Source of the DNA: Escherichia phage vB_Ec-M-J
Reading direction: 5' to 3' (one strand)
DNA: 64,000 nt
Sequence record: OQ718158.1
The position numbers and the translations under genes are program-made. Below, piece after piece: positions 1 to 64,000 of the stretch (within the stretch, counting starts at the first letter, position 1; each line of letters starts with the position of its first letter). The notes below the pieces were generated by a model that saw nothing but the letters and a program-made list of their open reading frames with translations, was not told where the DNA came from and ran no database searches.

Positions 1-187
1 TTGATTGGGAATAAAAAGGTATCGACATATAAATCAGATGCTGGTATAATAGCAAATGTAATATTGATAGTGGACCCCAAGACAAAGGATGGGGATATTT
101 ACATAGTCATTTATCAAGATTCGTCGAACAAACGCGATCAGGATATTGATAAATTGAATATTCATTGTGAACTGTAAGGTATAACAA

Positions 188-571
188 ATGATAAACGATG
201 TAATGCTTTATGTATTAATTACTCCGATTCTTATTAACTCAGTAATAACTATTTCAATGGCATTATTTGGTATAGTAGCAATTGTTTATGCGGTTAGTAC
301 TGGAAAGTATACTTTAATTAGTAAGGTTGATTCATGGTTCGCATCTGATAGTGTACCATATTCAGCTAGTATGATTACGATTGGTATTCTAATCGTTGCA
401 TTTACACTGCACTGTATTGGTTTTATTAATACAAGTATTTTTTCAGTTTTTATTGGTCTATCATTATATCCATCACTTTGGTACTTGATTTATGTAATCG
501 ATGTTTGGTATAATAACTACAAGCAGTACAAAGTGAAGAAATCCATTTTATCCAAAGGAAACAAATCATGA
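188..571 (+). CDS. small hydrophobic membrane protein (hypothetical)
   Basis: 127-aa track ORF, several hydrophobic segments; stop overlaps next start (ATGA). Confidence 0.5.
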   Translation: MINDVMLYVLITPILINSVITISMALFGIVAIVYAVSTGKYTLISKVDSWFASDSVPYSASMITIGILIVAFTLHCIGFINTSIFSVFIGLSLYPSLWYLIYVIDVWYNNYKQYKVKKSILSKGNKS

Positions 572-918
572 AAGTAATTTTGTTTTTTGTTTGTATGATT
601 ATATGTGGTATGTCTTATGCAGAACCATTACCTGGACTAGTCTGTACTGAAGGTGATATTAAACACATTTACCAAGGTGATAGCGATGACCATACTATCG
701 TTTATATCGATGGTGAAGTGTATAATTTTGTTAAAGAACATACTGTAGGTGACATTAGTTTTACGCAGTACTCGAATGATACTGATCCCAATATGCTTGC
801 ATTTCTTCAAGTTGATGTATATGAAGAAAGTAATGGTGAACAGTATGTTAAACTTGTGATGATGCGTAAGGCAGCAAAACAGGCAACATTCGGTGGCTTG
901 TGTAAATATGAGGACTAA
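568..918 (+). CDS. secreted hypothetical protein with N-terminal signal peptide
   Basis: N-terminus MKVILFFVCMIICGMSYA is signal-peptide-like; RBS GGAAAC before ATG. Confidence 0.55.
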   Translation: MKVILFFVCMIICGMSYAEPLPGLVCTEGDIKHIYQGDSDDHTIVYIDGEVYNFVKEHTVGDISFTQYSNDTDPNMLAFLQVDVYEESNGEQYVKLVMMRKAAKQATFGGLCKYED

Positions 919-922
919 ACAT

Positions 923-1114
923 ATGTTGATTTATCAATGTGATAACATTCGTGTTATGCAGCATCCCTACTTACAAATCTTTGATGTGCAGCAGTATATG
1001 GAAGGTGATGACCCAAGAACCTATGGTCGTAAGTATGATTACTTCACTGTAAAGCAGTGTCATAACATCAAAGAAGTACGACAATTAGTTCAAGAACTTC
1101 AAAATAAAGGTTGA
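923..1114 (+). CDS. hypothetical protein
   Basis: track ORF 893..1114 trimmed to first ATG after upstream stop; followed by terminator hairpin. Confidence 0.45.
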   Translation: MLIYQCDNIRVMQHPYLQIFDVQQYMEGDDPRTYGRKYDYFTVKQCHNIKEVRQLVQELQNKG

Positions 1115-1140
1115 CTTCGGTCAACCTTTTTTGTTATAAT
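1106..1140 (+). terminator. fused terminator-promoter module (UUCG-loop hairpin holding TTGACT -35, then TATAAT)
   Basis: AAAGGTTGAC-TTCG-GTCAACCTTTTTT followed by TATAAT. Confidence 0.65.
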
Positions 1141-1169
1141 TACTTCATCAACTACTGGGGATTTTAATT

Positions 1170-1610
1170 ATGTACGTATATCGTTTTGAACTTAAATTCA
1201 GTTATATTGAACCTAACTTAGATCCAGCAAAAACAGTAGGGCCGTTCGCACGGTACTCTTCACGATACAGTACTAAAAATGGATTTGACCGTTTGTGCAT
1301 GACCACGCCTTCGCAATTCCAACCAGAACCAACTGAAGATGGAATCTATTCAATCAAACGTGGCTGGGCATTTGGCTGTCAGAGTTTGAATGATTTGTTT
1401 AAGTTCTTTACTATGGACTTGGGTAAATTACATCGTGCAGGGTTTGCTGTATCAGTATATGAAGTTCCTGATAATCATGTTGACATTGGTCGTAGTCAGG
1501 TTCAGTACTATTGTGGTAGTGCCAATCTGGTTCGTATTATGTCAGTGAGAGAAGCAAAGGATGAGTACCGCCAAAGTAAAAGAGTAATACATGAGGCTGT
1601 ATATGGATAA
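1170..1610 (+). CDS. hypothetical protein
   Basis: 146-aa track ORF directly downstream of terminator/promoter module. Confidence 0.55.
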   Translation: MYVYRFELKFSYIEPNLDPAKTVGPFARYSSRYSTKNGFDRLCMTTPSQFQPEPTEDGIYSIKRGWAFGCQSLNDLFKFFTMDLGKLHRAGFAVSVYEVPDNHVDIGRSQVQYYCGSANLVRIMSVREAKDEYRQSKRVIHEAVYG

Positions 1611-1947
1611 GACTCAAATAGAATTAAAAAAATTTGTATCGTTTTATCTACCCAATGACCCACGTTGTACACAATATGATGTTGCATATTACAATGCATT
1701 GACTACACAGTTAATGAAGAAATTCAAACAGTGTTTGACTGTATTCAATGATGATGGTAGACGTAGATATAGAATCATTCCAATGAATGATGAAAACGAT
1801 AACTACTTTGACTTTGATGTTGTTTTTCGAGCATATAATGATGATAGAATAAAATTAAATTATGAGCAAATAATGCTTGACCTCAGTGTTATCTGTGTTA
1901 TAATTACTCACATAGCCGAACTTGATGGTTTAAAAGAATGGTATTAA
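1603..1947 (+). CDS. hypothetical protein
   Basis: track ORF 1591..1947 trimmed to ATG overlapping upstream stop (ATGGATAA). Confidence 0.5.
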   Translation: MDKTQIELKKFVSFYLPNDPRCTQYDVAYYNALTTQLMKKFKQCLTVFNDDGRRRYRIIPMNDENDNYFDFDVVFRAYNDDRIKLNYEQIMLDLSVICVIITHIAELDGLKEWY

Positions 1948-1961
1948 CTTAGAGGATAATC

Positions 1962-2228
1962 ATGAAGCTTAAATTACAATACAATGGTTTTACTTTGCGT
2001 AACGACACTGAGTTTGTCAATCGTTCACCAGGTGCTGAGTTGTTTTTGCGAGAGATGAACATTCCTTTCGTCATCACTACTGTTGGTGACCGTGAAGTGC
2101 TACAATACGCAGAGCATCCAGTTATTGATGTTCCGTGGTATTCTGAGCATATGTATATGGATATGGCCCGTCGCTACGACTGTAAGTTCGTAGTTGAAGG
2201 TGATAAAATTACAGTCCAATTCAAATAA
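1962..2228 (+). CDS. hypothetical protein
   Basis: 88-aa track ORF; RBS GAGGA before ATG. Confidence 0.55.
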   Translation: MKLKLQYNGFTLRNDTEFVNRSPGAELFLREMNIPFVITTVGDREVLQYAEHPVIDVPWYSEHMYMDMARRYDCKFVVEGDKITVQFK

Positions 2229-2239
2229 GGTAACTTAAA

Positions 2240-2533
2240 ATGATCAGTACTTCAGTAAATGCAAGCATCGTGGCAGACGTAGAAATGGTTAAAGAATGTA
2301 CAGACGAAACCCTTCGCAACATGTACATCAATGATTTGATTTCAGAGTACGGAAGTCGTGGTGTTCATGAGTTTGTTCGCCTAAGCGGTGAATTGATGAA
2401 GAATCGCATTCGTATGAAGCTTAATGTGCATCCAAAAGCATGGGCGTTTACAATGAAGTACGCTGAAGATATTGTTGAGTTGCGTCGCAATGATGTGTAT
2501 AATCGTTTACACAATGGTACATTAAAGGACTAA
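2240..2533 (+). CDS. hypothetical protein
   Basis: 97-aa track ORF; AAGG RBS. Confidence 0.55.
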   Translation: MISTSVNASIVADVEMVKECTDETLRNMYINDLISEYGSRGVHEFVRLSGELMKNRIRMKLNVHPKAWAFTMKYAEDIVELRRNDVYNRLHNGTLKD

Positions 2534-2583
2534 ATTATAGGAATCCGTAAAAGGATTCCTGTTCTTGTTTATAAGGTAATAAA

Positions 2584-2808
2584 ATGAAATATCTAGTACT
2601 AGTACTGCTATTCTTGAGTACTGTTGTATGTGCTAAACCAAAGTATCATGTAGTGTGTATCAACGAGATGGAAGGATATACTGAAACATATAAGAACCAT
2701 ATTGTTGAAGTTGCAGCCCAAGGTTCCTATGGGACCATCATCTTCCTTAAGAACAATGTGATTGTTCAGTACAAAAAAGATTCAAATTGTAAAGTGACTA
2801 AAAAATGA
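2584..2808 (+). CDS. secreted hypothetical protein (signal peptide)
   Basis: N-terminus MKYLVLVLLFLSTVVCA; AAGG RBS. Confidence 0.55.
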   Translation: MKYLVLVLLFLSTVVCAKPKYHVVCINEMEGYTETYKNHIVEVAAQGSYGTIIFLKNNVIVQYKKDSNCKVTKK

Positions 2809-2878
2809 TCTAGATCAATTTTTCAGATATTCTCTGTAAATAATAGCAGTACAGAACATTATTTTACGGAGGTGTAAT

Positions 2879-3115
2879 ATGGAAACTATAATCATCATAT
2901 GTGCGTTGTTTGCATTTTTGGTAATGTGGTCACCAACATTCATTGCATATAAAATGAAAAATAAAAATGCAGAAGCAATTATGTACGTAAACTTATGTTG
3001 CATACTAACTTATGGAATACTTTTATTCTTTACTGAATTTACATTAATCCCAGTAGTAGTTTGTTCATCAATGTTTATTTGGTTGTTTCTGCTTTATGAA
3101 TCTATTAAAAAATAA
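2879..3115 (+). CDS. small membrane protein (hypothetical)
   Basis: 78-aa ORF, two hydrophobic helices; GGAGG RBS. Confidence 0.5.
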   Translation: METIIIICALFAFLVMWSPTFIAYKMKNKNAEAIMYVNLCCILTYGILLFFTEFTLIPVVVCSSMFIWLFLLYESIKK

Positions 3116-3169
3116 AAGATATAGGGTTGGTAATATGCCATCCCTTTTACTTTATGTGGGGTTTAATTA

Positions 3170-3742
3170 ATGAATAGAAAAGGTAAGTTCAAAGTATCAA
3201 AGAAGAACAAAAGTTCTAGATTTAGACCTATAACTTTAACTTTTAAGGCTAAAGAAGAATTAACTGCACTTAGTAAAAAGATAATTTCATCTAAGATTAA
3301 AGTATCATACGTAAATTCGGTAAAATTTCAGAAGGTTAAACCACAAGACAAACTCATTTCACTTATATTTAAACGTAATGATTTTGAGATATTAGTAGAT
3401 GATTATAGAGCCTATAATGCTGGATTCATTCATGTCACTTGTAATACCGAACTAACTGAGTTGGAACATTTGACATGTATCATAAGTGTAGATAACGGTG
3501 TGGTGAAGTACAATTTTTTACATTTTACCAATATCAATAATGGAATGGGTGTACAATCCAGACCTATAGTACCTACATGTGATGTGACTAATTTAGCAAA
3601 GCTCAATGAAGAAGAATATTTTCAAGAAAGCATTGTAACTGAGCATTTAGATGCTATAATAGCAACTTACAAAGAATGCATATGGGTTTTGAATGCGATA
3701 AAGCCCAAATTGTGTTTAATGAATGTCGTTCGTGATTTATAA
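3170..3742 (+). CDS. hypothetical protein
   Basis: 190-aa track ORF; GGGG RBS. Confidence 0.55.
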   Translation: MNRKGKFKVSKKNKSSRFRPITLTFKAKEELTALSKKIISSKIKVSYVNSVKFQKVKPQDKLISLIFKRNDFEILVDDYRAYNAGFIHVTCNTELTELEHLTCIISVDNGVVKYNFLHFTNINNGMGVQSRPIVPTCDVTNLAKLNEEEYFQESIVTEHLDAIIATYKECIWVLNAIKPKLCLMNVVRDL

Positions 3743-3755
3743 CTGGAGATGTAGT

Positions 3756-4199
3756 ATGGGTTGGATTAACGTTAATAGCATTGAACTAAATGAGCAAGAC
3801 ATATTTGCCTTTGTTAATTTGGTAGAGAACATTGCTATTAAAGGTCGTCTGTTTAGTTCATCGGACGGTAAAAAATGGATCTCTCTTATGAACGACAATG
3901 GCGAGATTTATGACGTTATGCAACTACCTCATTGGGCTTATAAGAATACATCTGATGATGTGATGGCTGCTGTTATGCGTGAGTTTGAGAAGCTGCCAGG
4001 TGGTGATATTAAGAACATCGTATTCAATGCAGAACGCATGAACTACACACCAGAGCAGCTTCAACAGTTGGCAATTGCTGCCTATCAAGCTGCCATTAAG
4101 AAACCTGAATGTGTGATATTAAAGTACACACCGAACTTGAAGTTAACACTAGAAGATATGGATTCCTTTATCTTCAGTTCAGAACTTAAACAGTACTGA
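3756..4199 (+). CDS. hypothetical protein
   Basis: track ORF 3723..4199 trimmed to ATG after GGAG. Confidence 0.55.
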   Translation: MGWINVNSIELNEQDIFAFVNLVENIAIKGRLFSSSDGKKWISLMNDNGEIYDVMQLPHWAYKNTSDDVMAAVMREFEKLPGGDIKNIVFNAERMNYTPEQLQQLAIAAYQAAIKKPECVILKYTPNLKLTLEDMDSFIFSSELKQY

Positions 4200-4270
4200 T
4201 TTGACTTTGGAACAACCATTTCATATGTGATATAATCTTAAGTGTCTGTTGAAATAAACAGCACATGAAG

Positions 4271-4278
4271 TATAAATA
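4271..4278 (+). promoter_or_regulatory. T4-type late promoter motif TATAAATA (tentative)
   Basis: exact TATAAATA about 35 nt upstream of 4311 start; 8-mer alone expected by chance in AT-rich DNA. Confidence 0.3.
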
Positions 4279-4310
4279 TTAAAGTAATTTATCTCTTTAA
4301 GGAGTATGAA

Positions 4311-4694
4311 ATGGTTGATAAATGGAATAAGAAAGATCCATCGCATGATGTGGATATTTCTGGAATTGATAATGCACATAAGCATAAGTATCTTGATTCA
4401 CTAGGTCTACTAAAGCCTGACCAAAGTCTTGCACATGATCGTCCTTCACGCGAAAAAGCTTTCAGTTTAGAATCACTAGGCCATGAATTGAATCGTGTAT
4501 TTGAAGATCATCCAATTTATGTACGTGATATCATTGAGAAACTTAAAGTGACTCCTAAAGAGCACTTCAAGGCAACAGTACACGCAGCATTCCGTGCACT
4601 ACATGAAGCACTAAAGAAAACTCATAACCTTCGTAAGATTCATGATGATATCGTGAACTCTATTGAAGGCGAAAAACATAAGTTTAAAAAATAA
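4311..4694 (+). CDS. hypothetical protein with Y(L/V)(D/N)SLGLL motif
   Basis: 127-aa ORF; AAGGAG RBS; TATAAATA late-type motif about 35 nt upstream; motif shared with 5542..7053. Confidence 0.6.
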   Translation: MVDKWNKKDPSHDVDISGIDNAHKHKYLDSLGLLKPDQSLAHDRPSREKAFSLESLGHELNRVFEDHPIYVRDIIEKLKVTPKEHFKATVHAAFRALHEALKKTHNLRKIHDDIVNSIEGEKHKFKK

Positions 4695-4698
4695 TTAA

Positions 4699-4734
4699 AA
4701 GGGGTTGACTTCAGTCAGCCCTTTGTCGTATAAT
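4699..4734 (+). terminator. fused terminator-promoter module
   Basis: GGGGTTGACTTCAGTCAGCCC hairpin then TATAAT. Confidence 0.55.
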
Positions 4735-4781
4735 ATTTTCATCAAGTGATACAAAATACAAACAACGTGAGGTATTAAATT

Positions 4782-4895
4782 ATGCAAGGTACTAAATTCA
4801 TCATCGCTGCCCTAATCGCTGCTGTTGTAGTGGGTACAGTATGTTATTCAATTGACACCTATATCAATACACCTAGTGTTGAACAAACCAAATAA
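4782..4895 (+). CDS. small hydrophobic peptide (37 aa, hypothetical)
   Basis: hand-found ORF below track threshold; GAGG RBS; single TM-like segment. Confidence 0.35.
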   Translation: MQGTKFIIAALIAAVVVGTVCYSIDTYINTPSVEQTK

Positions 4896-4903
4896 GGGAT
4901 ATC

Positions 4904-5167
4904 ATGGCTGAAACATTATCACTATATGCGTTAGTACTGTTATTTGTCGGATTTCTTCCCGCACTCATTACAGCCATTCGTGTTGTTAAACATGAAGCTG
5001 CATTGATTGTATGTAGTATTGGGTCGAACATTCTATTGTATTTCTTTTTGACAAACACTATTGTACTGTTCGCTTTCTTTATCATGATTCTGTGGGTACT
5101 TGTAATTCTCGGATTCTTCATTTGGTCATTGGTTGATCCTAAGAAAAAAACAGGAGAAGTGAAATGA
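4904..5167 (+). CDS. small membrane protein (hypothetical)
   Basis: 87-aa hydrophobic ORF; stop overlaps next start. Confidence 0.5.
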   Translation: MAETLSLYALVLLFVGFLPALITAIRVVKHEAALIVCSIGSNILLYFFLTNTIVLFAFFIMILWVLVILGFFIWSLVDPKKKTGEVK

Positions 5168-5460
5168 AATTAATTATTGTAATGATGATGTTTTTGGCTT
5201 TCCCAGTACTGGCTACTCCTAATCTGGACTGCACACTGTTGCGTTCAGATGGTGACACACTTGAAATCAACACATATGAACTCTTTGGTCCAAGTGTAGT
5301 GGAGAATGAAACCACCTACAATTTCAAAGCTATTGACTTTGAAGGTAATGTTCCAGTACTAACTACAATGACTATTGACAAAACTACTTTACTCGGACGA
5401 ATCACCACACAACGCGGAGAAAGTAAAACATTCACAGCGAAAGCTGACTGTAACTACTAA
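5164..5460 (+). CDS. secreted hypothetical protein (signal peptide)
   Basis: N-terminus MKLIIVMMMFLAFPVLA; GGAG RBS. Confidence 0.55.
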   Translation: MKLIIVMMMFLAFPVLATPNLDCTLLRSDGDTLEINTYELFGPSVVENETTYNFKAIDFEGNVPVLTTMTIDKTTLLGRITTQRGESKTFTAKADCNY

Positions 5461-5481
5461 TGGTATAGTACAGTGAAAATA

Positions 5482-5513
5482 GGGTTGACTTCGGTCAACC
5501 TTTTCTTTATACT
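5482..5513 (+). terminator. fused terminator-promoter module
   Basis: GGGTTGAC-TTCG-GTCAACC then T-run and TATACT. Confidence 0.6.
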
Positions 5514-5520
5514 ATAAATA
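5513..5520 (+). promoter_or_regulatory. T4-type late promoter motif TATAAATA (tentative)
   Basis: exact TATAAATA about 25 nt upstream of 5542 start. Confidence 0.3.
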
Positions 5521-5541
5521 TAGTCATAGAGAATAAACAAT

Positions 5542-7053
5542 ATGAAATCTATGGAGAGAAATCAAATGCCAGGTCAATTTACTGATAAAAATGGCGGGAA
5601 CATGGCAGGTCACTCTGATAAATGGAGTGAACGCAATCGTCGTCAAAATAGCTACCAAGCAGGACAGGGGTCACGTGGTTCACGTAATCAAGGGACAGGT
5701 TTAGCTGGTAAGGCAAACGCAGAAGCAGGTGAAGTTAAGAGTACTGAGAACATGACTGAGCTAGAAAAGCTACGTTATGTTAACTCATTAGGTCTTCTTA
5801 ACGCAACACAGAAACAACGCCTTGCTGATATGGAACGTGCTGAGAAAGAACAAGAAGTTCCTAAAGAAGAACCAAAACCAGAAGCTCCTAAAGCAGCTAA
5901 CCCTGTTAAAGAGTTATCTGATAACTTAGGTAAGATCTTTGCTAACAAACCACAGTTGATTCAGGGTATTGTCAAAGCACTACAGGCAGTTCCTAAAGAA
6001 GAACTCAAAGGTAAAGCACAAGCTGTACTTGATGCAATGAAAGGTAATAAGAGCACTGAACCTACTGAAGTATTCAGTACTATCATGCGTGCACTTGAAG
6101 GTACACACAAAGAAGATTCCAAAGAACCTGAACAGGGTGAAGCAAGTCTTGATGGTATTCTTAAAACTTTTGATAGTATTGGTAAAGCAGACCGTGCTAA
6201 TGCCCAGCAAGTCAAGAATGTACTGGCTAAACTTGAAAACCGTTTAGAAGGTAAAGATGATAAGGTTAAGCTCGTATCAGATGCAGTTAACAGTGCACTT
6301 AAATCTTATGTACAAGGTGAGAAAAGTCGCTTCGTAACAGCTATGGATGCTGCATTCAACACTATGAAAAAGTATGAAGCAGAACATGGTGAGAAAGTGA
6401 CACCTGATGGATATCTACTACGTAAAGATGAAGAAGGTGCAGTTGAACAGAAAGATGTTGAGCCTGAGCAAGAAGATCTACCTGATACCGTTGATATGGA
6501 TGGATACATTCATCGTCCTGAGATGGAAGAGTTTGGGTCAGATAAAGAAGGTTTTGAACATGCAATGGCAGTATATAAAGCATTAGTTAAAAATCCAGAT
6601 TATGCTAACCGTTTTGTTGACGAGTTTGATAGTGCATGGAATAACTACAAAGAGAAAGGTTATGATTTCCCTGCTGAAGCTGCATTCTTTGAACTTGGTA
6701 AACTATTAGCTAAACATGGAATTGACGTTGGTTCATCTGATTCCGAAGGTATGGAAGAAGAACATCTTGAAATGACTGATAAATCAATTCATGAACTTCA
6801 AAAGTTAATGATGTGGATATCCGAGATTGGTAAAAAAGCAGGTGCTGATAGTAAAAGTATCAACAAAAATATTAGTTGGATTAAAGATAATGTTGGTAAC
6901 AATGCTCGTAAACTTCAAAAGGCTTGGGCTGATTTAGTAAATGGTGCAGATGATGTTGACATTGAATCACCAGAAGCATATGAGTATGCACTAACTACAC
7001 TTGATAACTCATTCAAAGAGTACGACCGTGGTGTTGGAAAGGATAAAAAATAA
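5542..7053 (+). CDS. acidic K/E-rich 503-aa protein (hypothetical; candidate late/virion protein)
   Basis: longest plus-strand ORF in part 1; TATAAATA at 5513; shares SLGLL motif with 4311..4694. Confidence 0.7.
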   Translation: MKSMERNQMPGQFTDKNGGNMAGHSDKWSERNRRQNSYQAGQGSRGSRNQGTGLAGKANAEAGEVKSTENMTELEKLRYVNSLGLLNATQKQRLADMERAEKEQEVPKEEPKPEAPKAANPVKELSDNLGKIFANKPQLIQGIVKALQAVPKEELKGKAQAVLDAMKGNKSTEPTEVFSTIMRALEGTHKEDSKEPEQGEASLDGILKTFDSIGKADRANAQQVKNVLAKLENRLEGKDDKVKLVSDAVNSALKSYVQGEKSRFVTAMDAAFNTMKKYEAEHGEKVTPDGYLLRKDEEGAVEQKDVEPEQEDLPDTVDMDGYIHRPEMEEFGSDKEGFEHAMAVYKALVKNPDYANRFVDEFDSAWNNYKEKGYDFPAEAAFFELGKLLAKHGIDVGSSDSEGMEEEHLEMTDKSIHELQKLMMWISEIGKKAGADSKSINKNISWIKDNVGNNARKLQKAWADLVNGADDVDIESPEAYEYALTTLDNSFKEYDRGVGKDKK

Positions 7054-7062
7054 ACATTTAAA

Positions 7063-7100: not shown

Positions 7101-7124
7101 GAGGGTTTTATAAGAGGTAATGCA

Positions 7125-56798: not shown

Positions 56799-57074
56799 AT
56801 GCGGATTCTACTGACAGCTAACGAAATCGAACAAGTACTGACTACTAACCTGGAAGACTGGAAACGTGAAGCAGATATCCAGGCGGTTCAATGGCTTAAT
56901 GATAAGTTAACGCCGGATGATTTAAGTAAGATTGTAGATCCTCAATTCTACGAAGATATTCACGACACCGCGTTAAGCGTCGAGGATGTACTTGATAAGC
57001 ACTACATTGATACTGATTTACATGTTTACGGTCGTAAAAACTTTATCACTATTCACGACATTTACAATACTTAA
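56799..57074 (+). CDS. small acidic early-type ORF
   Basis: downstream of duplicated dual-promoter cassette. Confidence 0.55.
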   Translation: MRILLTANEIEQVLTTNLEDWKREADIQAVQWLNDKLTPDDLSKIVDPQFYEDIHDTALSVEDVLDKHYIDTDLHVYGRKNFITIHDIYNT

Positions 57075-57160
57075 GTATTGACAAAGTATCTTAGTACTGT
57101 ATAATAGTTTACATCGAGAGGGGAAACGGTTCCCCTCCTAACAAAGAGAGAGAAATAAAA

Positions 57161-57343
57161 ATGGCTAAGTGCACTATCTGCAAGAAAGAAATAGTATTAG
57201 TTCCAAGTGCCCGTGAACGTGCCGCTCGGTTTGGTGGCAAAGCGTCAGACTATACAAAAATGTTTACTGCCCATACAGCTTGCCAGGTAGCAAAACGTTC
57301 ACAAGAAAGCGTAGAATTAATGCGTAAACTTTCCAAAAAATAA
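57161..57343 (+). CDS. small early-type ORF with Cys pairs
   Basis: CTICKK...HTACQ; behind promoter and hairpin. Confidence 0.55.
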   Translation: MAKCTICKKEIVLVPSARERAARFGGKASDYTKMFTAHTACQVAKRSQESVELMRKLSKK

Positions 57344-57430
57344 GTATTGACAAAGTATCTTAGTACTGTATAATAGTTTACATCAAGCGAGGGGAATGGT
57401 TCCCCTCCTAACAAAGAGAGAGAAATAAAA

Positions 57431-57754
57431 ATGGCTATGATCCTTACCCAGAAAGTAGAACTGAAAATTGTAACCTCCTTTGACATTAACGTTAATCGGT
57501 GGACTGATTCACACGGCAATACTTACCACTCTTGCTACGTGTCTGCGTTAATTGGCGACCGCTGGGAAGACCTGGGACACGAAACCTTTACATACGGTTA
57601 CGGTACACAAGGCGAATACACGGGCTTGGAGATCATTAAAGAAACCGTTATAGGTTTCAACCCGAAAGAAAAAGTTATTCACCGCATCGAGGAAGAGATC
57701 AACAAAGAAATAACAGTTCGATACAACGATGTAAAACGTAAGAAAGACATGTAA
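57431..57754 (+). CDS. small early-type ORF, paralog of 50934..51257
   Basis: shared RWTDSHGNTYHSCYVS and VKRKKDM; upstream region duplicated from 57161 gene. Confidence 0.65.
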   Translation: MAMILTQKVELKIVTSFDINVNRWTDSHGNTYHSCYVSALIGDRWEDLGHETFTYGYGTQGEYTGLEIIKETVIGFNPKEKVIHRIEEEINKEITVRYNDVKRKKDM

Positions 57755-57849
57755 TAGAATCCATTTAAAGTACTATTTGACATTGCCCAGATAGTACTTT
57801 ATAATAGACTCTAACTTGTAGTACTAACTCAACTAATAGGATGTATACC

Positions 57850-58245
57850 ATGATTACTAAATTCTACGCTACCCGTGAAGCTGCCCGTATTGTTGCACGC
57901 GAGGAAGGAGCAGCATTTAAAGACATGGGCAAAGATGCACCGAAAGGTCAACGCTGGGCCGTACAGTTCAAAGAAATCTCTGATATTGTGAATTCACCTG
58001 AGCCAGTACTGACAGCAGCAGAACTAAAACGAGCGGATATGCTGGCGGCAATACTTGACGCACAAGATGAGTTTATCGCTGATTCTGATATCAAAGTACA
58101 GGTAAACCACACCGCATGGACTCACGCGGATCACCTGGCAAACCTTAAGCGTCCAAGTGAACTGATTCGCAACCAGAAAGAGATCCGACACGACCGTAAG
58201 GGTAATCGTGTAACAGTATACAGTAAACGCCGCCAGGTTATCTAA
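57850..58245 (+). CDS. small early-type ORF, paralog of 45336..45602
   Basis: start set by paralog alignment; shared FYATREAARI...RKGNRVTVY; terminator follows. Confidence 0.6.
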   Translation: MITKFYATREAARIVAREEGAAFKDMGKDAPKGQRWAVQFKEISDIVNSPEPVLTAAELKRADMLAAILDAQDEFIADSDIKVQVNHTAWTHADHLANLKRPSELIRNQKEIRHDRKGNRVTVYSKRRQVI

Positions 58246-58267
58246 TAACTTGCAGTACTAACAACAC

Positions 58268-58292
58268 GGCGGGATCAGTTCCCGCCTTTTTT
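58268..58292 (+). terminator. rho-independent terminator
   Basis: GGCGGGATCAGTTCCCGCC then TTTTTT. Confidence 0.7.
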
Positions 58293-58306
58293 ATAGGACA
58301 AACAAC

Positions 58307-58561
58307 ATGATTAAGGTTCAACTATCAAACGATAATGTATTACGGGTACACTATAAAGCACCTCAGAGAATCATCACAAAGGCCGTACAGCTTGCTAATG
58401 AGTTTATTAATGGTAACCTATTACCTAGGAAGTTAAGCAACGGGAAACTGCGTGTAATCGACGTGGACACTAACAACAGGATAGTAATCGAGAACACAGG
58501 AAAGATAAACCTTTATGAGCATCAACAATACAATAAGAAAATAAAACTAATATCACGTTGA
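58307..58561 (+). CDS. small ORF (hypothetical)
   Basis: 84-aa track ORF; AGGA RBS. Confidence 0.5.
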   Translation: MIKVQLSNDNVLRVHYKAPQRIITKAVQLANEFINGNLLPRKLSNGKLRVIDVDTNNRIVIENTGKINLYEHQQYNKKIKLISR

Positions 58562-58614
58562 CAGTACTCAATTGTTTTAGTACTATGTACACATACCAAC
58601 ACGGGAGAAACAAA

Positions 58615-58833
58615 ATGAAATTATCTAAAATCGAAAAGAAAACTATTGATGAAGCAGTTAAGCACGGTTATACCTTTCGTAATGATTCACATTTTACCAA
58701 TTTTCAACAAGGGTATCGTACTATTAAAAAACTAATTGACAAAGGTTTATTAGTTGAAGTCAATAACGGTAACGGTATCGAGTATCAACCAACACAGGAC
58801 GCATTTTATTTTAAGAAATATAATATTATCTAA
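58615..58833 (+). CDS. small ORF, promoter-duplicate partner of 58891..59133
   Basis: track ORF trimmed to ATG; identical upstream TTGACA promoter block. Confidence 0.5.
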   Translation: MKLSKIEKKTIDEAVKHGYTFRNDSHFTNFQQGYRTIKKLIDKGLLVEVNNGNGIEYQPTQDAFYFKKYNII

Positions 58834-58890
58834 TTGACAGTACTCAAATGTTTTAGTACTATATGTACATACCAACACGGGGGAAACAAA

Positions 58891-59133
58891 ATGATTACTT
58901 TAGAAAAACGTATCAAAGAAACTACATCGCTGGTGGAACTGTTAACAGTACTCAAATGTAAAACAACACCATTCAGCACGCCGGACTTTATTAATATGGT
59001 TGATGTTAATGGTCGCTATCGTATCACGGTCGAACAAGGAGCGGCGAAAGTATTCAGTACTAAAAACACTAAGGAAGTGATCCACGCCGTTAATGTTAAA
59101 AAAGTAGTTGCCATTGATAGTAAAGTACTGTAA
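58891..59133 (+). CDS. small ORF, promoter-duplicate partner of 58615..58833
   Basis: track ORF trimmed to ATG after GGGGGAAAC. Confidence 0.5.
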   Translation: MITLEKRIKETTSLVELLTVLKCKTTPFSTPDFINMVDVNGRYRITVEQGAAKVFSTKNTKEVIHAVNVKKVVAIDSKVL

Positions 59134-59164
59134 TATAGTTTCATTAACTCAAGGAGAACATGCA

Positions 59165-59749
59165 ATGCGTAATTATACTAAATTCATCCGTACACTGTCA
59201 GAAATGGAAACCAACAAAGAGATCCTTTCAGCTTGTCGGTTAGCTGGACTGGAGATCATCGGTGCTGGTTCTTCCCGTATAGTATTCGCTTTAAATGATC
59301 GGTTAGTGATTAAGGTCGCGAATTGTGATGCGGGTGTAGAACAAAATGAAACTGAATGTAAGGTATGGAATTTTTTAGACTATGACCGCCCTCAGTTGAA
59401 ACAGTACTTTGCAAAGGTGCATATGCATTTATGCGATCCTGATAATATGTTTATCGTTATGGATCGGTTGAGTACTGCAAGTAAAGGCAGTGTGAAGCAC
59501 GTTAACGCGTGCAATGAATTAAAGTACAATATTAAACGTAATGCAATTGAACGCCAGCACCGCTTTGCTGATGCACTACAACACGTCGATGATACATTAT
59601 CAACACTAACGATAAGAGATATCAGAAAACAGAATATCGGCCAGGATCGTAATGGCCTTATTAAAGTACTTGATTACGGTTTAACCTGCAATATCTGGAA
59701 TCAGTACTATAAAAAGCGTGATGTGGCAGCAAGTAAGGTAACACGATAA
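59165..59749 (+). CDS. mini protein-kinase-like protein (putative)
   Basis: IGAGSSRIVF (Gly loop), VIKVA (Lys), IRDIRKQNIG (catalytic loop), KVLDYG (DFG-like); AAGGAG RBS. Confidence 0.5.
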   Translation: MRNYTKFIRTLSEMETNKEILSACRLAGLEIIGAGSSRIVFALNDRLVIKVANCDAGVEQNETECKVWNFLDYDRPQLKQYFAKVHMHLCDPDNMFIVMDRLSTASKGSVKHVNACNELKYNIKRNAIERQHRFADALQHVDDTLSTLTIRDIRKQNIGQDRNGLIKVLDYGLTCNIWNQYYKKRDVAASKVTR

Positions 59750-59763
59750 AAAAGATTAAAAAA

Positions 59764-59796
59764 GGGATTGACTCCGGTCAGTCCCTTTGCTATTAT
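59764..59796 (+). terminator. fused terminator-promoter module, UCCG-loop variant
   Basis: identical to module at 56489. Confidence 0.6.
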
Positions 59797-59973
59797 ATAT
59801 TCATTGAGAGATAACTCACTGACCCATAGGGTGCGGAAGTGTATCTATTATATAAGTATTCAGTACTGAAAACTATTTTAAAAAAAAGTACTTGCATTGT
59901 ACTTAGAATCAAGTATAATGTTTTATATCGAGAGGGGGAAATGGTTCTCCCTGGTATATTAAGGAATAAAATC

Positions 59974-60195
59974 ATGACTACAATGACTTGCATTTACGCT
60001 TCCAATCTTCTGAATGATGCGGCCTTTAATGTTGATTCAGAATATCAATGTTATCGGGATGAAAATAAAAAAGTTTTTGTAGTTGATAATAATGGTTTCC
60101 ATATTGAATTACAATCCGGCTTCACTGGCGTTGATGGTAAATCAGTATGGGGCGTACAGGATGATAAAGGTACATATCATTTTAAACGTAATTAA
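59974..60195 (+). CDS. small early-type ORF (hypothetical)
   Basis: track ORF trimmed to ATG after promoter and hairpin. Confidence 0.55.
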   Translation: MTTMTCIYASNLLNDAAFNVDSEYQCYRDENKKVFVVDNNGFHIELQSGFTGVDGKSVWGVQDDKGTYHFKRN

Positions 60196-60278
60196 GTATT
60201 GACAAAGTATCTTAGTACTGTATAATAGTTTACATCAAGGGGAGAATAGTTCTCCCCGATACTAAAAGGAATAAAATC

Positions 60279-60686
60279 ATGACTACTACTAATCAAGCTC
60301 GGTCCATCGCCAACGATAAAAATCATGCTGAAATGGTCGCTGGTTACATTGAAGCTATGCAATTCAGTACTGTACACAATGAGAACGGCGAATACCTGGA
60401 AGATTATGAATTATCAGAGCAAGCCCATCAAGCGGCAGTGATTGCATGTTCACGTTTCCTTGCTGTACATGGTGAAGATATGGAAACAGTACAAAAACAC
60501 CATAATCCTGATTATACTTATAGTCATGCGGGTCATGATCTCTTTCTTACTCGCGAAGGTCACGGCACTGGTTTTTGGGATCGTGATATCGGTCACTATG
60601 ATGATATATTCACTAAGTACTGCGAAGAAATCAACGTTTGCGATCCCTATGTAGGCGATGATAATCTAATCTATATGGGCGAATAA
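60279..60686 (+). CDS. small early-type ORF, His/Asp-rich
   Basis: 135-aa track ORF behind promoter and hairpin. Confidence 0.55.
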   Translation: MTTTNQARSIANDKNHAEMVAGYIEAMQFSTVHNENGEYLEDYELSEQAHQAAVIACSRFLAVHGEDMETVQKHHNPDYTYSHAGHDLFLTREGHGTGFWDRDIGHYDDIFTKYCEEINVCDPYVGDDNLIYMGE

Positions 60687-60773
60687 AAGTATTTGACAAA
60701 GTATATCAGTACTGTATAATAGTTTACATCAAGGGGAGAATAGTTCTCCCCACCAATAAAAGGAAACAAAATT

Positions 60774-61046
60774 ATGTCCAGCTACTCCGCTACTATGATC
60801 ATTAAAGATATGAACGGTAATCCTACTTCTGCTGGTGGATCATTTGGAAACATTAATTTAGATGGTCGGTTATCCATGCAATCAGCCATCGATGCAGCGA
60901 AAGAAGTTTTTAAGAATGAATGTACTGTAAGTAAGCTGGATTATATGGGATTCGCTATCGAAAAAACTAATCGTTTTGTGAACTACAAAAATCCACTGAT
61001 GATCGATACTAACCTGAAAGCAAACGAAGTGGGGTACTTATTATGA
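60774..61046 (+). CDS. small early-type ORF (hypothetical)
   Basis: behind promoter and hairpin. Confidence 0.55.
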   Translation: MSSYSATMIIKDMNGNPTSAGGSFGNINLDGRLSMQSAIDAAKEVFKNECTVSKLDYMGFAIEKTNRFVNYKNPLMIDTNLKANEVGYLL

Positions 61047-61234
61047 CAGTAGAAGAAGTTAAAAAAGTACTGGCAGTACTACGCTATCATAATCATTGCA
61101 AGGTGAAGAATGATCCTGATTATCTCGATTCATCCCTGGAAGAGGATACACTACAAGCAATAAGCCATATGCAAAAAATGCTTAAGCGTATGACCGAAAA
61201 GAATAGGCCGGACTATATCGGAAATAAAATTTAA
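61043..61234 (+). CDS. small ORF, translationally coupled
   Basis: ATGA overlap with upstream gene. Confidence 0.5.
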   Translation: MTVEEVKKVLAVLRYHNHCKVKNDPDYLDSSLEEDTLQAISHMQKMLKRMTEKNRPDYIGNKI

Positions 61235-61321
61235 AAAGTACTTGCATTGTAGTTAGATTAACGTATAATGTTTTATATCGAGAGGGGGAAATGGTTTCCC
61301 CTCAAGTCCAGGAGATACACC

Positions 61322-61585
61322 ATGAACACTATCGAAATCACTATCAATGCACACGTATACGACAACGTAGTACTGCAAACTACTATGACCGCTAATGATA
61401 CCAGTACTTTGCGGAATACTGTTATTAGTGCCGTATGTGCTGCAATCGGTGATGTCGCCCTGGAAAATGCAGAACACATCAACAACGGTTTCACTATGTG
61501 CAAACGTGATAACGCAAAACATATCATCGTAGAAGGTTACGGCGGTGTAGAATTTAATGTTTATATGAAAAAAGTACTTGCATAA
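61322..61585 (+). CDS. small early-type ORF (hypothetical)
   Basis: track ORF trimmed to ATG after promoter and hairpin. Confidence 0.55.
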   Translation: MNTIEITINAHVYDNVVLQTTMTANDTSTLRNTVISAVCAAIGDVALENAEHINNGFTMCKRDNAKHIIVEGYGGVEFNVYMKKVLA

Positions 61586-61652
61586 TAACTAAAACAAAGT
61601 ATAATGTTTTGCATAGGGGGAGATATCCTCCCCCACTAAAAGGAGTAATAAA

Positions 61653-61877
61653 ATGGCTAACTTTGATGAACTGATGCGGGAAGTAGCTAACCTGGCAGAA
61701 GAGAAGAAATCATTCGATTCTATCTATAACACCGCTCACCGTGATTCAGTACTGGCATGTAACCAGGATCAAAAAGATGAACTAATCGCCACCTATCATG
61801 AAGCATGGAAGTACTACCGACAATGGGAGAAAGAAGAAAGTGAGTCTACCATCGAAGGTATCAATAATCTAATCTAA
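61653..61877 (+). CDS. small early-type ORF (hypothetical)
   Basis: behind promoter and hairpin; AAGGAG RBS. Confidence 0.55.
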   Translation: MANFDELMREVANLAEEKKSFDSIYNTAHRDSVLACNQDQKDELIATYHEAWKYYRQWEKEESESTIEGINNLI

Positions 61878-61953
61878 AAGTTTTATTTCAGTACTATTGA
61901 CATAGCTTGATAGTACTGATGTAATAACTTTACTAACTACAAGGGGAAACATA

Positions 61954-62211
61954 ATGGATCAATTCACACAATATCGGGTAAATCCTCAATCTATGGCCTA
62001 CGTAGAAGACCATAAAACGTTACCAGTACTGCAACCAGTTAAAGGCCGTATCTATCGTGGCCTTGCCTGGGATACGGCCCAGGATGGATATAAAACCGTC
62101 GCCGTGGGGATGTATTGCGGGAATGGTGAATGGTTTGATCCTAACAATCCGATTGCACTTGACAGTACTGAAAAAATGAAATGGGCCGACTACATCGAAG
62201 ATATTTCATAA
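61954..62211 (+). CDS. small early-type ORF (hypothetical)
   Basis: behind class-B promoter. Confidence 0.55.
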   Translation: MDQFTQYRVNPQSMAYVEDHKTLPVLQPVKGRIYRGLAWDTAQDGYKTVAVGMYCGNGEWFDPNNPIALDSTEKMKWADYIEDIS

Positions 62212-62301
62212 AAACTATTTGACAGTACTAACCAGTAATGTATAATGTTTTACATAGAGCGGGGGAATAGTTCTCCCGCCAATAGTTTGGAGTTAAACAT
62301 T

Positions 62302-62502
62302 ATGTCTATCGCTATCGCCCTGGTTGAAGTACTGAAAGAAGCTAAAGCCAACCTTATCGATGTACAGATTAAGGAATTGCAAAACGGCTTAATCGGCTGT
62401 ACTTGTACCGCTGGTGGAGCGGCAGACTATCGAGAACACGAATCACTCGAATCACTGGTTCGGTATCTTACCATGATCGTTGATGATTGGAGAATCATCT
62501 AA
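62302..62502 (+). CDS. small early-type ORF (hypothetical)
   Basis: track ORF trimmed to ATG after promoter and hairpin. Confidence 0.5.
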   Translation: MSIAIALVEVLKEAKANLIDVQIKELQNGLIGCTCTAGGAADYREHESLESLVRYLTMIVDDWRII

Positions 62503-62519
62503 CAAAAAAGAATAAAAAA

Positions 62520-62552
62520 GGGATTGACTCCGGTCAGTCCCTTTGCTATTAT
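62520..62552 (+). terminator. fused terminator-promoter module, UCCG-loop variant
   Basis: identical to module at 56489. Confidence 0.6.
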
Positions 62553-62746
62553 ATACGCATAGACAAAAACTAGCCCACAGGGTGCATAAGTGTATCCAAA
62601 ATATATAGTTAATAACGGTGAGTAACTATCTGCTGGTGGAGTGAAAACTATTAATAAAAAAGTATTGACAAAGTATATCAGTACTGCAATAATGTATCTC
62701 GTAGGGCGGCAATGGTGCGACGGCCCACAAAGTTAGGAGCTTCAAA

Positions 62747-63079
62747 ATGACTACTTCAATCGCTATCGTTAAAGCTTTCATCCGTACTAATGTTTCCTCT
62801 GTATTCATCGACGGCCTCGACCGTAACGTAGAATACTCAATCATTATCGCACAAACGGCAAACGGTTCTCGGTACATCCTGAATGATAGTGAAGCAAATC
62901 ACTACTACTTCACTAAAGCCACTGGCTTTAAACGCATCGATGCTGATGTAGTATACGCTAAGATGAATAAGCTGGTAGATAAGATTAACGCTAAAGGTAC
63001 TATAGATTTACAGTACTGGACCGAAACCGATCCAGAATATGGATCTCACCGCTACCTGAATCCAGGTATTAAAATGTAA
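62747..63079 (+). CDS. small early-type ORF (hypothetical)
   Basis: 110-aa track ORF; AGGAG RBS. Confidence 0.55.
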   Translation: MTTSIAIVKAFIRTNVSSVFIDGLDRNVEYSIIIAQTANGSRYILNDSEANHYYFTKATGFKRIDADVVYAKMNKLVDKINAKGTIDLQYWTETDPEYGSHRYLNPGIKM

Positions 63080-63168
63080 AAAGTACTTGCATAGTACTTA
63101 GATTCATGTATAATGTTTTACATAGAGAGGGGGAAATGGTTCTCCCTCCTAAATTAAGGAGTTTTATC

Positions 63169-63570
63169 ATGACCTTCTCAATCACTTCCTTCGCTGACGT
63201 TTTAGTACTGGCTCGGACTTTTGGTAAAGATGCACTGGAGTACGCTGTAAGTAATGGCACTATCCAACCGGAACAGTGCCGCATCATTGGAAACTGCAAA
63301 CGTTGGGCGGTATCCAATACTATTGCACTGGAAAACTTCAACGATGGCAACAATGAATATTCTGTTGATGCAGTATTCGAAGCCGTAGACCTGGGCGGTA
63401 TCTATAACACTAACCTGAATGATGTGCGTATCGTTCGCACGGGGTTCGGTGCTTATGATGTATCTATCCGTGAAGCTATGGACAATGGATACATTAGCAA
63501 GGACTTACTTGCTCACATCATGCAGCTATGGACGGAACGTAACGAAGCACGCACTATCTTAGGGCTGTAA
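63169..63570 (+). CDS. small early-type ORF (hypothetical)
   Basis: track ORF trimmed to ATG after promoter and hairpin. Confidence 0.55.
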   Translation: MTFSITSFADVLVLARTFGKDALEYAVSNGTIQPEQCRIIGNCKRWAVSNTIALENFNDGNNEYSVDAVFEAVDLGGIYNTNLNDVRIVRTGFGAYDVSIREAMDNGYISKDLLAHIMQLWTERNEARTILGL

Positions 63571-63638
63571 GCGTTACACATCACTAAACATCATAGGCCG
63601 CTCTCTAGCGGCCTTAACTATATCAGGAGGGCATACAT

Positions 63639-63848
63639 ATGTTCTATACAGTATATAGCGTTATAGGCACTATTGCAGGCGTACATGATAACGTCGATAG
63701 TGCTATGCGTACAGTACTGCAACAGGTTCCACTTAAGCCTAAGACCATTAAGCAGATGACAGCACGACTAACCAGGGCGACGGCTGGCGTGGAAGTATGG
63801 CAGGACTATGGGGATACACAGATAATCGTAAGCGTAACGAAGGATTAA
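63639..63848 (+). CDS. small ORF (hypothetical)
   Basis: 69-aa track ORF; AGGAGG RBS; hairpin upstream. Confidence 0.5.
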   Translation: MFYTVYSVIGTIAGVHDNVDSAMRTVLQQVPLKPKTIKQMTARLTRATAGVEVWQDYGDTQIIVSVTKD

Positions 63849-64000
63849 TGCGTAAAAGGATTTAGTACTGAATCATAAAAAAGTCAAGGTATTTTTAAAC
63901 TTCAGCGTTAAAAAAATGCATAGGTAATCCCTTGACTTTTATGAATAAAAAGGGATTGGACTATGGCAAAATGCGTAGGGGGCTAAAGGGCGGGTAACCT

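Follow-up and report, generated by a model that had tools for sequence, protein, structure and literature searches.

A GC and CpG island with host-like codon usage coincides with the direct terminal repeat of the Escherichia jumbo phage vB_Ec-M-J

We analyzed 64,000 nucleotides of the genome of Escherichia phage vB_Ec-M-J (record OQ718158.1), hereafter called the window, which megablast assigns over its whole length to the genus Asteriusvirus (121Q/PBECO4/G17-like jumbo coliphages of 350 to 385 kb). From left to right the window holds packed small and medium genes (block A), two arrays of tandem paralogues (blocks B and C) and, behind some 2 kb that lack credible ORFs and include a long non-coding leader, about 52 small genes that all point the same way (block D). 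Base composition changes abruptly in front of block D. Our main finding is that this step is, by alignment with related genomes, the inner edge of the direct terminal repeat (DTR) of the phage, and that the DTR stands out from the rest of the genome in its content of G+C, in CpG and in codon usage. The structure of the DTR is already known in these phages, and its early-gene character has already been suggested in the literature; the new part is its description as a sharp island of G+C and CpG with host-like codon usage, together with the same contrast in phage T5. Neither the island nor the host-like codon usage of the DTR is mentioned in the accessible parts of the papers on phages Sharanji, fEgEco12 and CBB.

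The compositional step and the edge of the terminal repeat

In windows of 2 kb, the G+C content (GC) is 0.33 to 0.38 up to 43 kb and 0.36 to 0.42 beyond. A binomial likelihood scan of the whole window placed the best single change-point at 43,060, with a log-likelihood ratio (LLR) of 40 and a support region (within 2 units of log-likelihood) of 42,180-43,220; GC is 0.3505 in 1-43,060 and 0.3868 in 43,061-64,000, that is, 3.6 points higher. This LLR was reached by none of 1,000 shuffles of 500-bp blocks, nor of 1,000-bp or 2,000-bp blocks (1,000 each), the top shuffled value being 30. The ratio of observed to expected CpG (CpG o/e) is 0.69 left of the step and 1.10 right of it (0.71 +/- 0.17 versus 1.11 +/- 0.13 in 1-kb bins, p = 1e-9), and the median GC at third codon positions (GC3) is 0.314 versus 0.390 (p = 2e-6); array C taken alone did not differ from block D in GC3 (0.36 versus 0.385, p = 0.5). 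The shift is seen at all three codon positions, and it is bigger in coding than in non-coding DNA: GC in open reading frames (ORFs) is 0.396 in the DTR versus 0.353 outside it, and in the DNA outside ORFs 0.356 versus 0.322. CpG at the codon junction (3|1) is 0.69 outside the DTR and 1.13 inside, with a weaker contrast in non-coding DNA (0.62 versus 0.77-0.87). The dinucleotide signal is limited to CpG, GpC and CpA/TpG, and a Karlin-type dinucleotide distance was not discriminating (119-130 for blocks A, B and C among themselves, 103-179 between these and block D). Strand switch or GC skew was ruled out as the cause of the step, as array C shares the strand of block D and yet is AT-rich.

Codons that contain CG are also unevenly distributed, with 44, 40 and 26 per 1,000 in blocks A, B and C versus 72 in block D. 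In the same order, GCG is found 3.4, 7.9 and 2.1 times per 1,000 codons versus 13.1 in D, CCG 2.5, 2.8 and 3.5 times versus 5.4, and CGG 0.7, 0 and 0 times versus 8.1; CGC is commoner in block D as well. CGT behaves differently: at 19.9 per 1,000, block D is level with block A (19.4) and lies above only the arrays B (6.5) and C (6.2).

The DTR is seen as a duplication in two relatives whose records include both genome ends. Positions 1-20,668 of G17 are 100% identical to its positions 350,150-370,817, and positions 1-20,590 of BF17 to its positions 362,904-383,493; the window covers one copy. The first 25 nt common to the G17 and BF17 DTRs, AGTAGGCAGAGGAAGTCTGCCGTAC, have a single occurrence in the window, at 42,476, within the support region of the change-point, and upstream of this sequence G17 and BF17 diverge right up to the DTR edge. 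At the other extremity, position 64,000 of the window aligns to position 1 of G17, and the last gene ends 152 nt before the end of the window, exactly as in BF17 (383,132-383,341 of 383,493). The start sequence, the alignment of the last nucleotide and the spacing of the last gene together indicate that the window passes from the unique part of the genome into the right-hand DTR copy and stops at the physical end of the DNA; on the same alignments, the step near 42-44 kb is the inner DTR boundary, at 42,476. So delimited, the DTR measures 21,525 bp (GC 0.386, CpG o/e 1.10) and is 92-98% identical to those of G17, BF17 and a third relative, ECO103 4-12-1, over their alignable parts. The same length of 21,525 bp is listed for vB_Ec-M-J in PMC13070987. 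For other members of the group, the published reports give a DTR of 20,668 bp in Sharanji (PhageTerm), equal in length to the G17 repeat, and of 20,993 bp in fEgEco12 (PhageTerm and restriction digests).

To see which side of the step is unusual, the full genome of ECO103 4-12-1 (351,992 bp, unannotated, GC 0.341) was used as a whole-genome reference. Unsupervised segmentation isolates its positions 300,951-321,800, at a GC of 0.389 versus 0.338 for the rest (+5 points), and the homologue of the DTR lies at 300,965-322,251. This homologue is the highest-GC 21-kb stretch of that genome, and CpG o/e per 10-kb bin is 0.52-0.82 everywhere except in the two DTR bins, where it is 1.08 and 1.17. Likewise, GC is 0.384 in the DTRs of G17 and BF17 versus 0.327-0.355 on their flanks. 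By the whole-genome GC and CpG profiles of ECO103 4-12-1, it is the DTR that forms an island, with a sharp edge on either side, whereas the arrays are typical of the genome. The reverse reading, in which the arrays are an unusually AT-rich anomaly and the right-hand block has the normal composition of the genome, could appeal to the lowest GC3 being in block B (0.23), the lowest GC at second codon positions (GC2) in block C (0.27) and the fewest CG-containing codons in both. However, the GC of the arrays (0.33-0.355) is typical of ECO103 4-12-1 (0.341 overall, 0.338 outside the DTR), in which the DTR at 0.389 is the outlier and is likewise singled out by the CpG profile, and the published GC of the Sharanji genome is 34.1%. 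The whole-genome profile rules out the arrays as the outlier, and we give this reverse reading practically no chance of being right.

A first-pass annotation of the window had noticed a break in composition near 42-44 kb, with frequent CGT, GCG and CCG codons from about 44 kb onwards. The break is real, as sliding GC, the change-point, CpG and the shuffles agree, and codon counts bear out the abundance of GCG and CCG; the remark on CGT holds relative to arrays B and C and fails relative to block A. The coordinates need a correction, the boundary itself being at 42,476, inside a non-coding stretch and not at a gene edge, and that annotation had not recognized the step as the end of a terminal repeat. 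The same annotation had opposed the arrays to an 'early-gene block': the contrast stands, with the right-hand block and not the arrays as the compositional outlier, and the label is reasonable, though we can only infer it from architecture and analogy.

The island also has a use of its own. In the unannotated genome of ECO103 4-12-1 it located the two edges of the repeat with errors of no more than 15 bp and of about 450 bp, respectively. Annotation is where this can be put to practical use: the assemblies behind most Asteriusvirus records are collapsed or were opened at an arbitrary point, and by one published count (PMC13070987) the termini of only five related jumbo phages have been determined. 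The island is useful for locating termini and pre-early regions from sequence alone.

Anatomy of the repeat and of the neighbouring blocks

The coordinates of the features discussed below are collected in Table 1.

Table 1. Features of the 64,000-nt window of phage vB_Ec-M-J
Feature	Position	Strand	Remarks
Block A	1-18,596	+	Packed small/medium genes of the unique genome; GC 0.351, GC1/2/3 0.44/0.32/0.30
UUCG-loop terminator/promoter hairpin (PeSL-like)	1,106-1,129	+	Block A, copy 1 of 7
UUCG-loop hairpins, other copies	5,481-5,502; 7,060-7,085; 7,740-7,769; 12,363-12,392; 13,843-13,868; 15,252-15,283		Block A
Seven tandem paralogues, ~115 aa	16,157-18,596	+	Within block A
Block B	18,633-37,202	-	15-16 tandem paralogues, ~375 aa; GC 0.355, GC3 0.23, CAI 0.28
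Block C	37,161-42,201	+	~20-24 tandem ORFs, ~60-70 aa, median gap 8 nt; GC 0.333
Non-coding spacer	42,202-42,475	.	Unique genome directly outside the DTR; differs between G17 and BF17
DTR	42,476-64,000		21,525 bp, one copy
DTR leader	42,476-44,147	.	1.7 kb, non-coding, repeat-rich
Hairpin at the very edge of the DTR	42,480-42,496	.	Leader
Perfect TTGACA-16-TATAAT promoter-like site	42,851-42,878	+	Leader
8-nt periodic array, ~20 units	43,232-43,391	.	GGCTAGAC, GGCTAAAC, GTCTGGAA-like units
52-nt conserved element	43,787-43,838		Leader
Block D	44,178-63,848	+	~52 small genes, mean 94 aa, all towards the terminus; ORF GC 0.398, CAI 0.42
33-nt motif (..GCCCACAGGGTGCATAAGTGTATC..), six copies	45,998-46,030; 52,883-52,915; 54,549-54,581; 56,536-56,568; 59,816-59,848; 62,567-62,599		Block D
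UCCG-loop terminator/promoter hairpin (PeSL-like)	52,828-52,855	+	Block D
UCCG-loop hairpins, other copies	56,486-56,513; 59,761-59,788; 62,517-62,544		Block D
Last gene	63,639-63,848	+	Block D

The leader is rich in repeated elements. Repeats of AGTAATCA with a 10-nt period lie on both sides of the DTR edge, and the leader further holds many TTCAGTACTGAA palindromes and four ATTTTGGGCGTA boxes. Its perfect promoter-like site is followed by no + strand ORF of at least 40 aa for about 725 nt, the next one being at 43,604, and this site could drive a non-coding RNA. The periodic array resembles iterons or a protein-binding array. The 52-nt element is a conserved non-coding element. It recurs at 96% identity in four Salmonella jumbo phages that are otherwise dissimilar (Munch, 7t3, SE_PL and PHA46), where the DNA around it is unannotated, and at 94% identity in Erwinia phage Kaldavass. 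No Rfam family exceeds its threshold in the leader, the scan of the whole window gave none at the gathering threshold, and there are no tRNA genes in the 64-kb window.

Block D is organized differently from the rest of the window. Its median intergenic gap is 80 nt, versus 8-10 nt elsewhere, and from 44,148 on most genes are preceded by a module (more than 24 copies in the block) made of AAAAAGTACTTGCAA, 17 nt of any sequence, TATAAT, GTTTTACATC, a G+C-rich hairpin, a Shine-Dalgarno sequence and ATG. A simple pattern search on the + strand finds 32 sigma-70-like matches in the DTR versus 7 in the remainder of the window, which is twice as long. A location in the DTR, small genes and these matches on the coding strand are the traits of a pre-early or host-takeover architecture, and by analogy the DTR is predicted to be an immediate-early/host-takeover block. 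Pfam recognizes only a DksA/TraR zinc finger, a ParE-like protein, a GNAT acetyltransferase, DUF7249 (twice) and DUF7217 among the products of block D; the remaining ones belong to PHROGs without assigned function.

A second type of regulatory element, which combines a terminator stem, TTGAC and a downstream TATAAT, is present on both sides of the step. In block A its form is AAAAAGGGTTGAC-TTCG-GTCAGCCCTTTTT-GCTATAAT or, by its parts, GGGTTGAC-TTCG-GTCAGCCC, TTTTT and GCTATAAT, and the loop is UUCG in all seven copies. The variant that carries GCTATTAT has four copies, all in the right-hand block and all with a UCCG loop, in line with the earlier remark that the UCCG form replaces the UUCG form there. 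Short matches of 95-99% to this hairpin are found in Erwinia, Serratia, Yersinia, Aeromonas and Vibrio phages; on these matches, it is a regulatory cassette common far beyond the genus Asteriusvirus.

Two further motifs were observed. The 33-nt motif lies about 20-30 nt downstream of a UCCG hairpin at 56,536, 59,816 and 62,567, and at 52,883 a hairpin ends about 28 nt upstream; its copies could correspond to very short transcripts or to sites of processing. The hexamer AGTACT, often inside the TTCAGTACTGAA palindrome, is 10-20x over-represented across the window, with 146 copies versus 14.5 expected outside the DTR and 142 versus 6.9 inside. The complete relative has 919 copies versus 119 expected, with a peak of 61-67 per 10 kb in and beside the DTR (300-330 kb). 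Its position just upstream of the -35 box and within the spacer of many DTR promoters suggests that a protein of the phage or of the host may bind to it.

To the left of the repeat, the three arrays of tandem paralogues of Table 1 adjoin one another. The paralogues of block B are annotated in relatives as RCC1-like or 'regulator of chromosome condensation', and in phage CBB the equivalent place beside the repeat is occupied by paralogues of the kelch-like beta-propeller type.

Codon usage, ancestry and mutation as sources of the island

The codon adaptation index (CAI), calculated with the ribosomal-protein and elongation-factor genes of E. coli as reference, puts block D closer to the host (0.42) than blocks A (0.34), B (0.28) and C (0.29), and the correlation of relative synonymous codon usage (RSCU) with the E. 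coli reference genes is also higher for block D (0.49 versus 0.10). The same holds genome-wide in ECO103 4-12-1, where CAI is 0.409 in the DTR and 0.335 in the rest (p = 5e-5). The codons that lose most in the DTR are AGA, CCA, ACA, TGT, ATA, TTG, GGT, CGA and CTA. Seven tRNA genes are found in the relative (Arg-UCU, Thr-UGU, Gly-UCC, Ser-UGA, Ser-ACU, Met/Ile-CAU and Asn-GUU), and the codons AGA, ACA, GGA, TCA, AGT and ATA, read by its phage tRNAs, are all rarer in the DTR than elsewhere. CpG by codon position amounts to 1.58/0.95/1.10 for the DTR and 1.77/1.01/1.01 for the E. coli reference genes, versus 1.14/0.52/0.70 for the phage outside its DTR. Host-like codon usage together with avoidance of the codons of phage tRNAs fits genes that are translated by a naive host before phage tRNAs exist.

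We consider it rather probable that the composition changes at the inner DTR edge because the repeat has been held closer to the host, its genes being expressed at time zero by unmodified host machinery. In this scheme the DTR would be a self-contained module, consisting of the 1.7-kb leader and then the ~52 small genes, mostly with their own strong sigma-70 promoter, 5' hairpin and ribosome-binding site. These genes would be expressed first, by unmodified host transcription and translation and ahead of the phage tRNAs and other takeover functions, and for this reason their codons and dinucleotides would be kept nearer to those of E. coli than elsewhere in the genome; the early timing is suggested here by promoter sequence and by analogy, and selection is the proposed cause. 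In the related phage PA5oct, RNA-seq found many DTR genes to be highly transcribed early in infection, and the authors of the CBB paper suggested that its repeat may continue the early-gene region. The broad idea is established: Bailly-Bechet and colleagues reportedly argued in 2007 that phage tRNAs serve late genes.

Exchange of genes with the early regions of rV5-like Vequintavirinae would, in the same scheme, be a second and separate property of the DTR and not the cause of its composition. That exchange is evident. Against two Vequintavirinae loci (GC 0.40-0.41), blastn gave 28-29 high-scoring segment pairs of 68-91% identity; every one lies in the DTR, and the 42.4 kb on its left are free of them. 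Of the 52 DTR proteins, 18 have homologues in these loci. Megablast of 44-64 kb retrieved 194 phage records, which include many rV5-like, Phapecoctavirus-like or Justusliebigvirus genomes of 135-154 kb, whereas the left blocks retrieved 67 and 41 records, nearly all jumbo phages (at least 230 kb) bar a few very short matches. One stretch of 218 nt is 99.5% identical to a 150 kb coliphage, the best record covers just 67% of 44-64 kb, and DTR gene content differs among Asteriusvirus genomes. Such confinement of the matches, such variable gene content and the GC and CpG (0.86-0.96) of the donor-type loci, near those of the DTR, would all suit a horizontally acquired block that has kept its donor composition, the donors being rV5-like phages, other coliphages of higher GC or DNA resembling that of the host. 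Splitting the genes by ancestry led us to reject this as the cause. Ten DTR proteins, disjoint from the 18, have homologues in the distant Mimasvirus CBB (28-57% amino acid identity), all inside the CBB DTR, and on this evidence their genes are long-term residents of the repeat. GC is 0.404 in the resident genes, 0.400 in those shared with Vequintavirinae and 0.388 in the others, CpG o/e is 1.30, 1.14 and 1.18, and CAI is 0.42 in all three classes (0.424 in the residents), versus a GC of 0.347, a CAI of 0.30 and a CpG o/e of 0.70 in genes outside the DTR; nor does GC differ between DTR genes with and without nucleotide-level sharing (0.403 versus 0.392, p = 0.55). As the three classes are indistinguishable, composition follows location in the repeat and not origin. 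The residents carry a signature equal to or stronger than that of the imports, and the edges of the island are those of the repeat and not of imported genes, so foreign origin is not the cause; moreover, the DTR exceeds the putative donor loci in CpG (1.10), and the conserved DTR genes of both CBB and T5 present the same contrast. We regard a foreign origin of the composition as unlikely. The first-pass annotation had proposed mosaic ancestry or different selective regimes; both exist, mosaic ancestry being real but incidental, and only the regimes account for composition, which makes them the better of the two readings. On the side of labelling, we observed 87-88% matches to 44.9-45.9 and 61.0-61.2 kb in MG065639.1, MG065689.1, MG065647.1 and MG065662.1, deposited as 'Campylobacter phage' (137-146 kb); they match as rV5-like coliphages do, and the records look mislabelled or contaminated.

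Another explanation ties the composition to the repeat itself. On this view the two DTR copies recombine in each cycle, during circularisation, concatemer formation and the regeneration of the repeat at packaging, and GC-biased gene conversion, or a different mode of repair or replication, could lift GC and CpG. It would account for a shift that affects all three codon positions, the junctions between codons and, to a lesser degree, non-coding DNA; both island edges are repeat edges, and terminal-repeat GC is higher in four of four lineages (Asteriusvirus, CBB, T5 by 1.4 points and SPO1 by 2.3). However, the effect is far stronger in coding than in non-coding DNA, it is codon-specific, since among codons that end in G or C it follows the preference of E. 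coli (r = 0.55) and the codons that lose ground are the ones that phage tRNAs read, and SPO1 has no CpG contrast. The substitution spectrum, obtained by three-taxon parsimony from the window, BF17, G17 and ECO103 4-12-1, counts 360-373 AT-to-GC versus 397-420 GC-to-AT changes in the DTR, a GC-to-AT excess that is slight, non-significant and accompanied by a wide equilibrium interval; values for the B array in this count are probably distorted by paralogy. The lack of an AT-to-GC excess (370 versus 420) argues against biased conversion, and a mutational regime of this kind appears to us improbable, about as much so as a foreign origin. The regulatory elements offer a third source, as more than 24 copies of a module with a G+C-rich promoter-proximal hairpin or terminator, set in gaps of 80 nt instead of 8-10 nt, might raise GC as a by-product. 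Yet the DTR DNA outside ORFs is poorer in G+C than the ORFs (0.356 versus 0.396), and the ORFs alone give the step (0.396 versus 0.353), as do GC3 and codon counts; these coding-only statistics rule out the hairpins as the cause, and we hold the idea to be very improbable.

Several observations nonetheless weigh against the proposal that the DTR is kept host-like for translation at time zero. For this phage, early timing rests on promoter sequence and analogy, and its own genome is seen with one DTR copy, the second lying outside the window. CpG also differs at the junctions between codons and, less markedly, in non-coding DNA, which simple tRNA matching does not predict, and some of the largest gains are in codons that highly expressed E. 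coli genes seldom use (CGG +0.96 RSCU, GCC +0.49) and look more like a general compositional shift than translational optimisation; some general compositional component is therefore unexplained. The CAI difference in T5 is not significant (p = 0.14), and the terminal redundancy of SPO1 is 2.3 GC points higher without a CpG contrast, so that the pattern is no universal rule for terminal repeats. Finally, the substitution equilibrium GC of the DTR, from four relatives, is 0.35-0.37 (95% range 0.32-0.41) versus a current value of 0.385, a result compatible both with maintenance of the island and with its slow decay.

If translation by the naive host is indeed the cause, the DTR provides a clean contrast within one genome between genes made for a naive host and genes read after takeover, and the idea of early genes tuned to the host and late genes tuned to phage tRNAs becomes testable in a jumbo phage. 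The biological value is modest, and how these phages are thought to work does not change.

Comparison with known systems

The DTR described here is the same element as in other Asteriusvirus and Rak2-like phages (G17, Sharanji, fEgEco12, vB_Ec-M-J itself, CBB and PA5oct), with the same start sequence and a length of ~20.6-21.5 kb. The layout is that of CBB, in which an array of beta-propeller paralogues of opposite orientation precedes the edge of the repeat and small co-oriented genes follow a non-coding leader (~1.4-1.7 kb in the two). There is no structural difference, and what is added here is the compositional island with host-like codon usage. In CBB, the annotated repeat of 22,456 bp has a GC of 0.378 versus 0.352 in the adjoining DNA, and the change-point lies 295 bp from its annotated start.

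The DTR resembles horizontally acquired compositional islands in its sharp edges, in its atypical GC, dinucleotides and codons and in having one third of its genes in common with an unrelated phage lineage; it differs from them in that long-resident genes are atypical too and in that its edges are those of a structural repeat.

The hairpins of blocks A and D can be compared to the PeSL cassettes of T4-type phages (Arbiol et al. 2010; Comeau et al. 2014), which consist of an A3-4G3-loop-C3T3-4 stem with sigma-70-like boxes (PMC4122927). The UUCG/UCCG module has the stem-loop and the -35 and -10 boxes at the correct spacing: an A-run and G-run, a loop and a C-run and T-run form the stem, which includes TTGAC, and TATAAT or TATTAT follows ~17 nt downstream. 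As in the PeSL, it sits between small variable genes. The commoner module of the DTR differs in its reverse order, with the promoter first and the hairpin after the -10 box, in the 5' untranslated region.

The Bacillus phage SPO1 is a more distant case, from another host and lineage. Its terminal redundancy is also filled with small early genes, some annotated as host shut-off, and its GC is slightly above that of neighbouring DNA (0.422 versus 0.399); in contrast to the DTR, it has no CpG contrast (0.49 versus 0.45). Many SPO1 genes are said, from work of Stewart and colleagues in 1998, to have their own strong early promoters.

A functional parallel is offered by phage T5 (NC_005859.1), whose left repeat is the first-step-transfer DNA with the pre-early genes, two-step DNA transfer having been demonstrated there. 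T5 likewise has a long terminal repeat with small genes behind host-type promoters, replete in CpG, higher in GC3, with more NCG codons and fewer AGA, ATA and CTA codons. CpG o/e is 1.31 in the repeat (1-10,219) versus 0.76 in 10,220-50,000; CpG at codon positions 2-3 and 3|1 is 1.32 and 1.35 versus 0.58 and 0.77 in the adjacent early region, and GC3 is 0.383 versus 0.323 (p = 2e-4). Per 1,000 codons, the repeat has 28.6 GCG and 1.4 AGA, versus 4.7 and 7.5 in the next 40 kb. No description of this CpG contrast was found in the papers examined. The repeat of T5 also has a repeat-rich non-coding stretch at one end, the injection stop signal (9,140-10,149 of 10,219 bp), which the leader at 42,476-44,147 recalls in position and character, as far as sequence can tell. 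The two differ in that the pre-early genes of T5 are arranged as two divergent operons, in contrast to the single orientation of the genes in the DTR, and in that the GC gap of T5 is small (+1.4 points) and its CAI gap not significant. None of the 52 DTR proteins matches T5 1-50 kb (tblastn, E<1e-4), so that no homology to its pre-early proteins (A1, A2, Dmp) was detected, and the resemblance to its pre-early region is functional and architectural only.

It is conceivable, although we think it rather unlikely, that the host-mimicking island of Asteriusvirus and T5, weaker in CBB, is the mark of DNA that has to function by itself in a cell still untouched by the phage. Asteriusvirus genomes would then share with T5 a two-stage mode of entry or action; the leader would be a pause or stop signal, or the ~30 strong co-oriented promoters would serve for transcription-driven pulling of the 370 kb DNA; and an island of CpG o/e would predict termini and pre-early regions in jumbo-phage assemblies without determined ends. 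Whatever its origin, the CpG pattern is common to two unrelated coliphage lineages and is not universal among phages with terminal repeats.

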